NCBI GenBank assembly: GCA_021399345.1 | Contig: JAAFKI010000008.1 | Location: 1-38,352, forward strand | Reading direction: 5' to 3' | DNA length: 38,352 nt | From: Candidatus Heimdallarchaeota archaeon | GTDB lineage: Archaea; Asgardarchaeota; Heimdallarchaeia; Heimdallarchaeales; Heimdallarchaeaceae | Shown here: positions 1,644-38,352 of the stretch, piece after piece | Numbering within the stretch: the first letter of the stretch is position 1 | Layout: each line of letters starts with the position of its first letter | The notes under the pieces: generated by a model | Seen by the model: the letters and a program-made list of their open reading frames with translations, nothing else | Told to the model about the DNA's origin: nothing | Database searches by the model: none | Made by a program: the position numbers and the translations under genes

Positions 1644-1684
1644 TGTATCTCTAAAAATAAGAAAAAAAGAATCATGCTATTAAT

Positions 1685-1702
1685 TTTGTCATAGGATCGT
1701 AT
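1685..1702 (+). repeat. Left inverted-repeat arm TTTGTCATAGGATCGTAT
   Basis: 14/18 match to the reverse complement of 3016-3033 (first 10 nt identical). The same motif occurs upstream of tnpB copy 2. Confidence 0.65.
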
Positions 1703-1744
1703 TTTTTTTCTGAGTTTAAATAAGAAAGTAGAGATAAGAAGATA

Positions 1745-3001
1745 ATGGTAAAAGTTCTACGAACTGAGTTGATTGAAGTCAAAACAAACATCAATTTAAG
1801 TAGACTTTGCCATTTGACTAAAAATCTCTATAATCGAGCAAATTTTTTAATTAAAGAAGAGAAAAAGAAAAAAGGAAATGTACTTGTTTATTATGAACTG
1901 GATAAATCATTAAAAGGAGAAGAGTGTTACAAACTCCTTCCAGCTCATACTGCTCAACATACACTCAAACTCCTTAGTCGTGATTGGGAAGCATACTTTC
2001 AAGCTATGAAAGATTGGAAGAAAAATCCTAAGAAGTTTCTCAGTAAACCTTGTTCTCCTCACTTTAAACGATCTAAAGCTGAGAAAATAGCTATCATCAG
2101 CAATCAACAAGCAAAGATAGTTAACGGGTGGTTGCTACTACCTAAAAAGGTGAATTTCACTATCAAGACAAGATTAACAGCTAGCAATGACCTTAGGGAA
2201 GTACGGATCATCCCCCGAGGAGTAGGTTACACAATTGAGCTTGTCTATTTCAAAATTCTTCCAAAACAAAGAAAAAAATTTCCATCTAGAAAGGGCGCCA
2301 TCGATTTAGGGTTGACCAACCTTGTCACTTTCGTGGATAACATTGGTAATCGACCAATTGTAATCAAGGACGAGGGAAAGGGGATAAAGTCTATCACACA
2401 ATATTATCTCAAAGAAGTAAAACGAATACAGCAACAATATGCAGAACAGCAAAGAAAACAAATAAAAAAGAAAAACAAGTTGATTTATGGTGAAAAATTT
2501 CTTCGTCTCCGTCAATTATGGAGATGGAAAACCAAAGACTGGTTACACAAGACCAGCAAATTTCTTGTTGAGTTATGGGAACAACGAAGGTTACATACAA
2601 TCTACATTGGTTATAATCCTTTGTGGAAACAACAAATGAGATTGAGAAAAAAGACTACTCAACTATTCGTTATAATACCATTTAATAAACTCATTACTTT
2701 GTTAAAGTACAAAGCTGAAGAGAAGGGGATAAAGGTTGAATTGGTGGAAGAATCGTATACATCAAAATGTAGTTTCCTTGATAATGAAATTTCTCAGAAA
2801 CACACCTTGTATGCTGGAAAAAGAGTAAAAAGAGGATTATTCCGTTCTGCTTCAGGGATTCTGATTAATGCTGATGTTAATGCTGCATTCAATATTTTAC
2901 TGAAAGGCGATCCGCAAGCACTTCTTCCAAGAAGTGTGGGCGGGGTAGGAGGGTACGTGGTTTACCCCCTTAGAGTGAGCTACCCAGCTATGATTCTCTA
3001 A
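1745..3001 (+). CDS. tnpB: TnpB-family RNA-guided endonuclease (IS1341/IS607-like, no TnpA adjacent), copy 1
   Basis: KNLYNRAN N-terminus; RuvC-I AIDLG; IYIGYN..WKQ; EESYTSKCS; RuvC-III NADVNAAFNIL. Confidence 0.93.
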   Translation: MVKVLRTELIEVKTNINLSRLCHLTKNLYNRANFLIKEEKKKKGNVLVYYELDKSLKGEECYKLLPAHTAQHTLKLLSRDWEAYFQAMKDWKKNPKKFLSKPCSPHFKRSKAEKIAIISNQQAKIVNGWLLLPKKVNFTIKTRLTASNDLREVRIIPRGVGYTIELVYFKILPKQRKKFPSRKGAIDLGLTNLVTFVDNIGNRPIVIKDEGKGIKSITQYYLKEVKRIQQQYAEQQRKQIKKKNKLIYGEKFLRLRQLWRWKTKDWLHKTSKFLVELWEQRRLHTIYIGYNPLWKQQMRLRKKTTQLFVIIPFNKLITLLKYKAEEKGIKVELVEESYTSKCSFLDNEISQKHTLYAGKRVKRGLFRSASGILINADVNAAFNILLKGDPQALLPRSVGGVGGYVVYPLRVSYPAMIL

Positions 3002-3038
3002 GAAAGATACTGTTCATATGCAACTATGACAAAGTCAA
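2908..3038 (+). ncRNA. Putative omega-RNA scaffold overlapping the tnpB 3' end (5' boundary unknown)
   Basis: Locally GC-rich. Hairpin CACTTCTT/AAGAAGTG (2919-2936) and GGGTA/TACCC pairings (2942-2985). Sequence and structure are conserved in copy 2. TnpB omega-RNAs are known to overlap the ORF 3' end. Confidence 0.6.
3016..3033 (-). repeat. Right inverted-repeat arm (reverse complement TTTGTCATAGTTGCATAT)
   Basis: Inverted partner of 1685-1702, starting 15 nt after the tnpB stop. Confidence 0.65.
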
Positions 3039-3247
3039 ATCATGTAAAGGTTTACTTAAACTTTTTAAAAAATATATAAAGTGTCTAGTATATCCAGATA
3101 AAATGAAACTAAAGCAAGTAATAACTTCCGTAATTGGTTTCGTATTGAGAAATTCAAAACTGAAACAAATTTGATAATTCATAGAATCAAATAAAAACAT
3201 AAATACAATAAAAATTAAAAAAATAAAACTGAAAAGAATACTCTTCC

Positions 3248-5239: not shown

Positions 5240-5340
5240 AGTTTCACTTTCTCTCTTACTGATAGAATATCCAGATTTATATATATAAGAAATGCTTTTT
5301 TTTAGTTCATAAACTTAATGGACATTTGAACTAAAATCTC

Positions 5341-36307: not shown

Positions 36308-37030
36308 ATGATGTCAAAATCTCTTCCTGCCATAGAAGTTGAGTCTAATTACTCCAATGTTCTTGAAAATATTCACAAAAGTGCAAGTTTTACTGGAAGA
36401 GATGGTTCAGATATTTCACTTGTGGGAGTAACTAAGAGAATTACTTTTGACAGAATAAAACCGGCTTTAGACGCAGGATTAAAGATAATTGGGGAAATTA
36501 TAAGCACTGAGTTGAAAAAAAAACTACTTAGAATTAAGGAATATTCGCCTTCATCAGAGATTCATGTTGTAGGTCAGATGCAGTCAAATAAAGTCAAATA
36601 TTCTGTTGAGCATTGCAATTTAATTCAAAGTGTACAAAGTAGTAAAATCCTATCTTTAGTAAATAAATATGCACAGAAACTTGATCTAATTTATCCCATT
36701 CTTTTGCAAGTCGATTTCAGTCAAGTAGAAAAAAGAAAAGGTTTGAATCAGCAGGAAGTTATCAAATATCTAGAAGAGATAAAGAAACTTAATCATATAG
36801 AGGTTCAAGGAATTATGACAATAGCTCCTCTTGAATATGAACTAGAAGAAGTTTCACTAAGAAAGTTTTTTGAGAGAACAAATTCCATTTTTCAGAAAGA
36901 GATTAAACCTCGAATTTCAGTTGATTCTCCAGTAATTTCAATGGGAATGTCAAGTGATTATGAAATCGCAATAAAGCACGGTTCTAACATGGTAAGAGTA
37001 GGTACAGCTATATTTGGATCACGAATATGA
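36308..37030 (+). CDS. yggS: YggS/PLPBP pyridoxal-phosphate homeostasis protein
   Basis: VGVTK, H.VG.MQSNK, G.MTIAP, SMGMSSDY, VRVGTAIFG. Confidence 0.9.
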   Translation: MMSKSLPAIEVESNYSNVLENIHKSASFTGRDGSDISLVGVTKRITFDRIKPALDAGLKIIGEIISTELKKKLLRIKEYSPSSEIHVVGQMQSNKVKYSVEHCNLIQSVQSSKILSLVNKYAQKLDLIYPILLQVDFSQVEKRKGLNQQEVIKYLEEIKKLNHIEVQGIMTIAPLEYELEEVSLRKFFERTNSIFQKEIKPRISVDSPVISMGMSSDYEIAIKHGSNMVRVGTAIFGSRI

Positions 37031-37036
37031 ATAGTT

Positions 37037-37054
37037 TTTGTCATGTAGTCATAT
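37037..37054 (+). repeat. Left-end motif of tnpB element 2 (TTTGTCATGTAGTCATAT)
   Basis: Fits the TTTGTCAT-N5-CRTAT pattern seen at both ends of element 1. Begins 7 nt after the yggS stop. Confidence 0.6.
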
Positions 37055-37138: not shown

Positions 37139-38352
37139 ATGACGAAAGTATTGAGAGTGGAATGTATTGAACTCCCCTATCATCAAGCGTTGAGCACACT
37201 TTGTCATCAAGTGAAAAGCCTCTATAATCGAGCGAATTATCTAGTAAAGCAATCGTTGAGTAAGAAGAATAAGCTGCTAGTGTACTATGACCTCAACACC
37301 TTACTTAAGGAAGAAGCGTGTTACAAAACTCTTCCCGCACAAACTGCACAACATACACTCAAACTCCTTTGCAGAAATTGGAAAGGGTATTTTCGTGCAC
37401 TGAAGGAGTGGAAAAAGAATCCTGTAGTTTTCTTCGCTATGCCCCAACCTCCTAACTATAAATCGAAAGATGGGGAAGTCGTAGCTATCTTCACCAACCA
37501 ACAAACAATACTACAAAATGGTTGGCTAGTCCTTCCTAAGAAAGTAGGCTTTTACTACAAAACTCGACTGACAACTCGTACCACGTTGAAAGAAGTAAGA
37601 ATTGTCCCTAGACGGGTGGGGTACACTCTCGAACTAGTGTATGAGAAAGTCTTACCTAAACAGCGAAAACGTTTTACCAGAAAAGGTGCTATCGATTTAG
37701 GGTCTATCAACTTTGTAGCCTTTGTGGATAACCTTGGGTTTCAACCAATTGTTATCAAGGATCACGGGAGAGGAATCAGAAGTATTATTCAATATTATTT
37801 GAAAAAACAAACACAATTAAGAGAGCAATATGTACAGCAGCAAAAACAGCAATTGAAAACAAGGAATAAACTCAGCTATGGTCCAGCTTATTATTATCTT
37901 CGCGAGAAGTGGCGAAAAAAACTCAAAGATGCTATCCACAAACTCACCAAGTATTTAGTAGACTTGTGGGTTGAACGGAATTTACATGAAGTAATTATCG
38001 GCTATAATGCGAAATGGAAACAGAATGTCCATTTCTGGAAAAAGATCACCCAGATGTTCGTAGCTATCCCCTTCATGAAAATTATCCACCAGCTACAGTA
38101 TAAAGCGGCTGAACATGGGATAAAGGTTGAGCTTATACCCGAAAAGTATACTTCAAAGTGTAGCTTTCTGGATAATGAGTTCCCCAAGTTTAGGGAGAAG
38201 TATGCTGGACATAGAATAGAACGAGGGTTGTTTAAATCTGCCCAAGGCCATCTAATCAATGCTGATGTTAATGCTGCATACAATATTTTAATCAAAAGCG
38301 ATCCGAAAGCATTGCCTAAACGGCGTGCGAACGGGGTAGGAGGATACGTGAT
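37139..38352 (+). CDS. tnpB: TnpB-family endonuclease, copy 2 (3'-truncated by the window edge)
   Basis: Manual translation from ATG 37139 is open to the edge: MTKVLRVECIE...GAIDLGSIN...VIIGYNAKWKQ...IPEKYTSKCSFLD...INADVNAAYNIL...NGVGGYV. 62/108 identical to copy 1 over the N-terminus by hand count. Confidence 0.93.
   Translation, partial: MTKVLRVECIELPYHQALSTLCHQVKSLYNRANYLVKQSLSKKNKLLVYYDLNTLLKEEACYKTLPAQTAQHTLKLLCRNWKGYFRALKEWKKNPVVFFAMPQPPNYKSKDGEVVAIFTNQQTILQNGWLVLPKKVGFYYKTRLTTRTTLKEVRIVPRRVGYTLELVYEKVLPKQRKRFTRKGAIDLGSINFVAFVDNLGFQPIVIKDHGRGIRSIIQYYLKKQTQLREQYVQQQKQQLKTRNKLSYGPAYYYLREKWRKKLKDAIHKLTKYLVDLWVERNLHEVIIGYNAKWKQNVHFWKKITQMFVAIPFMKIIHQLQYKAAEHGIKVELIPEKYTSKCSFLDNEFPKFREKYAGHRIERGLFKSAQGHLINADVNAAYNILIKSDPKALPKRRANGVGGYV

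Follow-up and report, generated by a model that had tools for sequence, protein, structure and literature searches.

Mirrored ends and a shared AT dinucleotide in a transposase-less TnpB element family of Heimdall-group Asgard archaea

Most TnpB genes sit in elements that carry no transposase gene, and the movement of such elements is poorly understood. The subject of this analysis is one of them, a TnpB element of about 1.37 kb (copy 1) near the start of a 38,352-nt stretch of Candidatus Heimdallarchaeota DNA (contig JAAFKI010000008.1 of assembly GCA_021399345.1, positions 1 to 38,352; hereafter the window), together with the family to which it belongs.

Solo TnpB elements, effector-less omega-RNA elements and mobilisation in trans are already known (PMC10691335). 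IS607 elements have imperfect inverted repeats and short direct-repeat motifs at their ends; at the right end of IS1535, two motifs lie 10–28 bp from the junction. IS607 recombines across a shared dinucleotide, leaving the target unduplicated (PMC6188088). The C. botulinum IStron has TGGG as its transposon-adjacent motif (TAM) and TCGG as the corresponding sequence inside its right end (10.1101/2023.11.20.567912). Prokaryotic TnpBs with inverted terminal repeats, linked to DDE transposases, have also been described (PMC10691335). The initial annotation of the window, made from the sequence alone, had taken IS607 to lack inverted repeats and TnpBs bounded by terminal inverted repeats to be typical of eukaryotic Fanzors; in the light of these reports that view is partly outdated, and nothing ties the TnpB of copy 1 to Fanzors in particular.

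Set beside these systems, positions 1676–3043 of the window are a non-autonomous element with a putative promoter, an intact tnpB gene, an omega-RNA scaffold and no transposase gene, and copy 1 is one old copy of an abundant Asgard-archaeal element. Insertion is seamless at 5′-TTAT/RA-3′-like sites (slashes mark junctions), with AT present at both junctions and once in empty sites. With roughly even confidence, the family is viewed here as non-autonomous elements of the IS607 lineage that are moved in trans by a serine-type recombinase through strand exchange at the AT. In the literature, no TnpB family was found described that combines mirrored two-box ends with an AT core and lacks a cognate transposase.

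Ends, junctions and empty sites

The left end of copy 1 carries TTTGTCATAGGATCGTAT at 1685–1702, and the reverse complement of 3016–3033 is TTTGTCATAGTTGCATAT, matching it at 14 of 18 positions; in copy 2, near the other end of the window, TTTGTCATGTAGTCATAT lies at 37037–37054. All three strings are where the initial annotation had placed them. Matches to the pattern TTTGTCAT-N5-CRTAT number three in the window, where 100 shuffles give an expectation of 0.00, and 11 in the whole host genome (G000; 3.27 Mb in 199 contigs, 33% G+C, 88.6% complete, the window being its contig C30). Ten of the 11 lie beside a TnpB element of the family or a remnant of one, the exception being on contig C53.

Alignment of flanks gave a family left end of the form flank-TT/AT-GA-N6(7)-TTTGTCAT-N3-GTCAT-AT and a right end that reads, on the top strand, ATATGNC-N3-ATGACAAA-N6-TC-AT/flank. 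Each end consists of two GTCAT-like boxes 8 bp apart, 11–26 bp from the junction. They are placed like the motifs at the IS1535 right end (PMC6188088), and as putative binding sites they are symmetric, unlike those of described IS607 members: the left and right ends mirror each other over ~28 bp at equal distance from both junctions, and once joined would make the dyad ATGACAAA-N6-TC-AT-GA-N6-TTTGTCAT. The left end of copy 1 departs from the consensus: GC replaces GA, box 2 is degenerate, and the spacer is 7 nt long, as it also is in a subfamily of genome G005. Box variants (GTCAT, GTCTT and GTAAC) tend to change at both ends together. Left boxes match the right box of their own element at 11.8 of 15 positions and the right boxes of other elements at 10.9, a result exceeded in 0 of 2000 permutations. 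Across the 25 genomes of the genus set (the host genome and 24 further, 72–92% complete), single genomes have up to 46 matches to the end pattern and 0–3 to a reversed control.

The right terminus TCAT is fixed wherever it is recognisable (77 right ends), with a few degenerate cases such as TCAC in locus L079. In the 50 elements for which both ends were available, the interior positions just before the AT are T in 50/50 and C in 46/50. Paired ends are ~1.37–1.43 kb apart, or 175–760 bp in mini- and deleted derivatives, and no larger unit was seen between paired ends. Mini-elements of 175–385 bp bear the ends of the family; two in the host genome, of 385 bp (C40:886–1270) and 348 bp (C88:73833–74180), have both ends and the omega-RNA region and no tnpB. 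For copy 2, a family right end of ATAYG-N5-ATGACAAA had been predicted, and full relatives of this copy do end in ATATGCCAAGATGACAAAAACTCATCAT. The initial picture of a TnpB-only element with inverted-repeat-like ends is borne out across the family. The limits of copy 1 need correction from 1677–3037 to 1676–3043, or 1674–3041 since the AT is shared, and the TCAA once read as an IS605-like right end is followed, 6 nt further on, by the conserved terminus TCAT.

AATCATG is present at 1670–1676 and 3038–3044, as first noted, and as a 7-bp target-site duplication it is rejected by the family statistics and the empty sites. The word occurs nine times in the window against 10.4 expected, i.e., at chance frequency, and its right copy overlaps AAATCAT, the conserved right terminus of every subfamily member. 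When the repeat is extended to the left of the AT, the two sides are identical over 3 nt in 3 and over 5 nt in none of the 50 elements, and in 47 to 50 of 50 other copies no repeat extends beyond the AT. The AATCATG repeat is a TCAT-type left target that happens to resemble the fixed AAATCAT terminus, with a G following both.

Four exact pairs of filled and empty sites were found between sister genomes and the host genome (L027 with window position 5309, L070, L097 and L064). In each, the filled allele reads flank-AT-element-AT-flank and the empty allele flank-AT-flank, with one AT. The empty target of the L027 insertion, ..AAGTTTAT/GAAC.., is at 5309–5310 of the window (minus strand), and the L027 TnpB is 82% identical to that of copy 1. 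The 1.37-kb unit of copy 1 is absent from the orthologous site in G018, G009, G011 and G013 (92–94% identity) and in two metagenome contigs, all of which have AAAAAAAGGGAGTTAT joined directly to GTAAAGGTTTACTT (the right side begins GTAAAGG in the closest relatives). The right junction of copy 1 therefore falls exactly after the AT. At another locus (L087 compared with C92:~1325–1334), the flanks of the orthologous "empty" site are separated by 10 additional bases (TGCTGTTTAT), unlike the element termini.

Target preference follows TT/AT/RA and is asymmetric. Left-flank positions −2 and −1 are T in 42 and 45 of the 50 elements (84–90%), and T at −1 (45/50) compares with A at +1 in 23/50 (p = 3.5e-6). 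The right flank prefers RA, with A at +2 in 32/50 (p = 1e-5), and the targets resemble TCATGA, the palindromic core of the joined ends. The left dinucleotide differs from the right AT at L032 and L035.

The TnpB protein, the omega-RNA and the distribution of the family

The TnpB of copy 1 matches PF07282 (E 6.7e-13) and PF01385 (E 1.6e-9), covering the OrfB_IS605 and Cas12f1-like TNB domains. Its RuvC residues D187, E336 and D377 form a canonical D-E-D triad that is invariant in seven copies. The usual C4 zinc-finger cysteines are absent, with one cysteine at that place. Among solved structures, only distant Cas12f-type matches were found (E about 4e-5), and N-terminally extended homologues showed no fused transposase domain. 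One cluster representative (P0129, 42% identical) is a 541-aa protein in which an N-terminal MazE/AbrB-type domain is fused to TnpB.

RNAalifold analysis of 25 copies returned a conserved stem (columns 61–94) and a hairpin (columns 101–117), and in 5 of the 22 predicted pairs both partners have changed with pairing retained. The predicted omega-RNA scaffold, which begins within the 3′ part of tnpB and extends to the right terminus, is supported by this covariation; it matched no Rfam family. Upstream of the gene, GAGTTTAWATAGG or GCTTTTATAGG is kept ~23 nt from the start codon in essentially all copies.

By tblastn, the host genome holds ~20 copies or fragments, many of them at contig ends. 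Copy 1 has no near-identical copy there, the closest TnpB being 81% identical at the protein level. Of the 8000 best candidates scored, 7322 were TnpB homologues at E ≤ 1e-10, and a scan of species-representative genomes gave at least 265 relatives. Relatives of the host genome all carry the label Candidatus Heimdallarchaeota, and 79 of the 80 retrieved loci are labelled as Heimdall metagenome-assembled genomes; the remaining one, L078, is a 2.8-kb contig binned with Cloacimonadota. So far as seen, the family is confined to Heimdall-group Asgard archaea. Viral contigs gave five chance matches to the end pattern with no TnpB adjoining, and no relatives were found among them.

A second TnpB family, 38% identical, is multi-copy across the genus (C150:~405–1762, which is L273; C170; and L085:~3573). 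Its ends, AT-GA-N4-box...box-N4-TC-AT, have the same design with different boxes (TTTTTCCGCCT), and a paralogous locus on C127 suggests seamless insertion at ..TGAT/AATT. In a quick maximum-likelihood tree, this C150-type family groups with a different serine-linked clade.

The features of copies 1 and 2 are collected in Table 1. The neighbours of copy 1 are ordinary host genes, namely a UbiA prenyltransferase gene and a 55-aa open reading frame on the left and a coiled-coil protein gene on the right. Between the right flank of the element and the coiled-coil gene, an A/T-rich stretch of 190 bp (3058–3247) is the remnant, with a 23-codon open reading frame, of a small membrane-protein gene that is intact in G006 (~80% identical). 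The stretch is absent from the four closest relatives, where the break falls between two TTACTT repeats. Copy 2 sits at the extreme end of a PF01168 (Ala_racemase_N domain) gene, at 37026–37030, and the TGA stop codon of that gene (37028–37030) is made up of the shared T and the first two bases of copy 2, GA.

Table 1. Features of the two TnpB copies in the window
Feature	Position	Strand	Description
Left flank adjoining element	1670–1675	+	TAM-like T(C/T)AT at 1672–1675; AT at 1674–1675 is the dinucleotide common to the right junction
Left-end recognition region	1676–1702	+	GC and 7-nt spacer (1676–1684), box 1 TTTGTCAT (1685–1692), 3-nt spacer, degenerate box 2 ATCGTAT (1696–1702)
TATA-box-like TTTAAATA	1715–1722	+	~23 nt 5′ of tnpB start codon; putative promoter
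tnpB copy 1	1745–3001	+	418 aa; PF07282, PF01385
omega-RNA scaffold (predicted)	2885–3043	+	Overlaps tnpB 3′ end and ends at right terminus; 5′ limit approximate
Right-end recognition region	3016–3043	+	ATATGCA (3016–3022), ATGACAAA (3026–3033), spacer GTCAAA (3034–3039), TC (3040–3041), shared AT (3042–3043)
Right flank GTAAAGGTTTACTT..	3044–3063	+	Presumed guide portion of omega-RNA transcript, by analogy with TnpB architecture (PMC10691335)
Copy 2 left junction	37027–37054	+	AT (37027–37028), GA, spacer ATAGTT, TTTGTCAT (37037–37044), GTA, GTCATAT
Copy 2 tnpB	37139–38352	+	59.5% amino-acid identity to copy 1; runs off window end

Candidate recombinases and alternative mechanisms

TnpB is the only gene common to the 80 loci, and no transposase-like gene recurs among their neighbours; together with the mini-elements, this speaks for mobilisation in trans. 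The only intact transposase found adjoining a TnpB of the wider family is in G051, where a 195-aa helix-turn-helix (HTH)-plus-Resolvase TnpA overlaps a 402-aa TnpB by 4 nt; in G169, a decayed TnpA lies upstream of another. In the tree, the TCAT-ended family is monophyletic and falls in an unresolved group with serine-linked clades. The host genome itself has two resolvase-type serine recombinases of ~245 aa, with no family boxes found near their genes, and two to four conserved enzymes of this type (~250 aa) occur in nearly every genus genome. Its resident IS607 TnpA was rejected as the cognate enzyme, its own ends being unrelated. Across the genus, IS607 TnpA copy number and family ends per genome correlate loosely (rho 0.56, p = 0.004, with relatedness and assembly quality left uncorrected), which is a lead only. 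No native genomic dyad resembling the joined ends was found above control. The resident IS607-type element has termini AC...GT and, further in, the inverted repeat CCGTCGT, whose distance from the terminus differs between the two ends. Its right end (..TTTCATAACGTGCGT) is present in 13 copies in the host genome (contigs C4, C16, C27, C41, C81, C88, C89, C104, C107, C109, C119 and C129), compared with four copies of its 640-aa TnpB.

Under the IS607-type reading, a recombinase supplied in trans would bind the boxes as double-stranded DNA, pair the ends and excise the element as a circle, which would be reinserted by exchange across the AT dinucleotide, as IS607-family serine transposases do. 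TnpB with its omega-RNA would cut the emptied donor site, using TTAT as TAM and the right flank as guide, and the element would be copied back. Four features have parallels in IS607 biology: insertion is seamless, a dinucleotide is shared, two motifs lie near the junction, and the predicted TAM and the right terminus differ in one base (PMC6188088; 10.1101/2023.11.20.567912). Against this reading stand the missing enzyme and the atypical symmetry of the ends: the IS607 ends described so far lack symmetry and terminate in GG (PMC6188088, PMC10691335), and it is DDE-linked TnpBs for which symmetric ends are reported (PMC10691335). Neither in the host genome nor among the listed matches of the 25 genus genomes was a recombinase gene found inside an element with these ends, and no circle or tandem junction was found. 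The only IS607 TnpA copy of the host genome is crippled, and throughout the genus IS607-type TnpA always accompanies the different, 640-aa TnpB, in elements with unrelated and asymmetric ends (ACCGTCGTC.. and ..AACGTGCGT). The autonomous relative in G051 ends in ..ATAACCT, not TCAT, and serine-linked relatives end in ..AACCT with asymmetric ends. There is also a mismatch at the left junction of copy 1, which reads AATCAT compared with GGAGTTAT in the empty site of the closest relatives, so that the pre-insertion sequence was not observed; a search of metagenomes for an AATCATG-type empty allele found only the GGGAGTTATG type of the relatives. Because more distant relatives have a GAATGAT-like sequence at this spot, the mismatch is read as probable divergence of the host lineage.

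Transposition of the IS200/IS605 peel-and-paste type, in which a Y1 TnpA encoded elsewhere (e.g., on an unbinned plasmid or virus) would cut single-stranded DNA after the TTAT TAM and the TCAT terminus, had been kept in play by the initial annotation and is unlikely. The junctions suit such a mechanism: the left end is preceded by a fixed motif and the right end closes with a similar one, the target is not duplicated, and empty sites are seamless. The left–right asymmetry of flank preference suits it as well, and sources name these proteins IS200/IS605 TnpB. However, the Y1 domain (PF01797) has no match in the 25 genus genomes, including those with 43–46 ends, while control genomes were positive, and the Y1-linked TnpBs of sister genera are ≤29% identical, such proteins standing on branches longer than 4 in the tree. 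Single-strand hairpins are not apparent at the ends (mean z −0.08 on the left and −1.1 on the right in 51 copies; z +0.75 to −0.82 for DNA-parameter folds of five ends). Mirrored ends with co-varying boxes are not needed by a same-strand hairpin mechanism, and the right flank has its own preference at +2. Insertion after TTAT free of target-site duplication is seen, then, with no Y1 partner found. Since no Y1 enzyme was found and the ends lack hairpins, mobilisation in trans by another enzyme, as first proposed, is the reasonable reading. The DDE enzyme offered as one candidate fares less well, the seamless AT insertion being a signature of the IS607 and IS605 types. Cut-and-paste by such an enzyme, with ~26-bp terminal inverted repeats (GA..TTTGTCAT..GTCAT) and duplication of a 2-bp AT target as Tc1/IS630 duplicates TA, is rather unlikely. 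It would account for symmetric ends at equal distance from both junctions and for AT at each of them, and inverted terminal repeats are reported for all six DDE-linked TnpB branches (PMC10691335). Yet a symmetric element should enter an asymmetric target either way round, and the strong asymmetry between left and right flanks argues against this. A retained AT-AT footprint would presumably displace the TAM from the guide target, so that TnpB could no longer home, the left dinucleotides of L032 and L035 are unlike the right AT, and the nearest autonomous relatives are serine-recombinase elements. The host genome gave no match to DDE_3 (IS630-type), DDE_Tnp_1 (IS4/5), rve, IS110, Cas1 or tyrosine integrase, other DDE families not having been searched, and its only protein families with at least four copies are two TnpB families. 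For Phage_integrase (PF00589), the lack of a match in the host genome, with 14/14 control genomes positive, may reflect its incompleteness or a divergent Xer-type enzyme.

That copy 1 is a fixed, immobile tnpB gene, with the 14/18 inverted match and AATCATG arising by chance, is very improbable. AATCATG is indeed at chance frequency, left box 2 of copy 1 is degenerate, and the genome contains nothing near-identical to this copy. The inverted motif, by contrast, recurs at both ends of dozens of independent insertions. Chance is refuted for the inverted repeat and for past mobility by the zero expected matches and by the absence of the unit at the orthologous sites of relatives. Among the mechanisms, the remaining weight falls on something not yet recognised.

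A more speculative idea, for which the prospects appear small, is that solo TnpB elements have given up their own transposase and borrow a recombinase resident in the host (one of the ~250-aa resolvase types, or IS607 TnpA acting on foreign ends), the joined ends mimicking a symmetric crossover site centred on AT. If so, it would explain the AT-GA...TC-AT design in two TnpB clades (this family and the C150 type) of one host genus, and would provide a general answer to how transposase-less TnpB elements move. Whichever enzyme is involved, the Heimdall family is a clean, abundant and recently active case, with up to 46 ends per genome, mini-elements, and filled and empty alleles between close relatives. 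Its well-defined symmetric ends and proposed AT exchange, with no Y1, DDE or integrase gene detected, make the question testable with a handful of candidate recombinases. The family also provides an archaeal TnpB that is compact, lacks a zinc finger and is predicted to use TTAT as its TAM.

Comparison with described systems

DDE-linked TnpBs (e.g., the IS630-linked DDE-6 branch) and eukaryotic Fanzor transposons share with the Heimdall family symmetric inverted-repeat ends around a TnpB-family nuclease (PMC10691335). In the family, by contrast, a DDE gene was not found, the target is not duplicated unless the ambiguous AT is so counted, insertion is oriented, and the TnpB has a canonical D-E-D triad with relatives linked to IS607, not DDE. 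By itself, the family does not connect Asgard TnpBs to eukaryotic Fanzors. IS1341-type solo TnpBs of the IS200/IS605 superfamily are likewise tnpB-only, multi-copy and evidently mobile; in them, too, omega-RNA and tnpB overlap at the 3′ end of the gene, and there are coexisting effector-less omega-RNA mini-elements (PMC10691335). Those described, however, have asymmetric hairpin ends and a Y1 TnpA in the genome, whereas the Heimdall family is without hairpins and no Y1 was found in the genus. Insertion without target-site duplication 3′ of a short fixed target, as in IS200/IS605, is a feature also common to IS607.

From the IS607 family (IS607, IS1535, ISC1926 and the C. botulinum IStron), the elements differ in four respects: a MerR/HTH-plus-Resolvase tnpA occurs in no Heimdall-family copy and only in a sister clade with other ends; the ends are mirrored at identical distances and not asymmetric; the core is AT within TTAT/RA, not GG; and the ends belonging to the resident IS607 TnpA of the genus are unrelated. 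The likenesses lie in the junctions and in the nuclease. Neither duplicates its target, and in both one dinucleotide occurs at each junction and a single time in the empty site. The short direct-repeat motifs that IS607 elements have 10–28 bp from the junction would correspond to the boxes of the Heimdall family as putative binding sites, and in both groups TnpB and omega-RNA lie at the right end. Among autonomous relatives of the Heimdall TnpB, the nearest, in G051, is of IS607 type. In both, the TAM (predicted for the Heimdall family) equals the target of the transposase and the right terminus is one base off, TGGG and TCGG of the C. botulinum IStron being paralleled by TTAT and TCAT of the Heimdall family.

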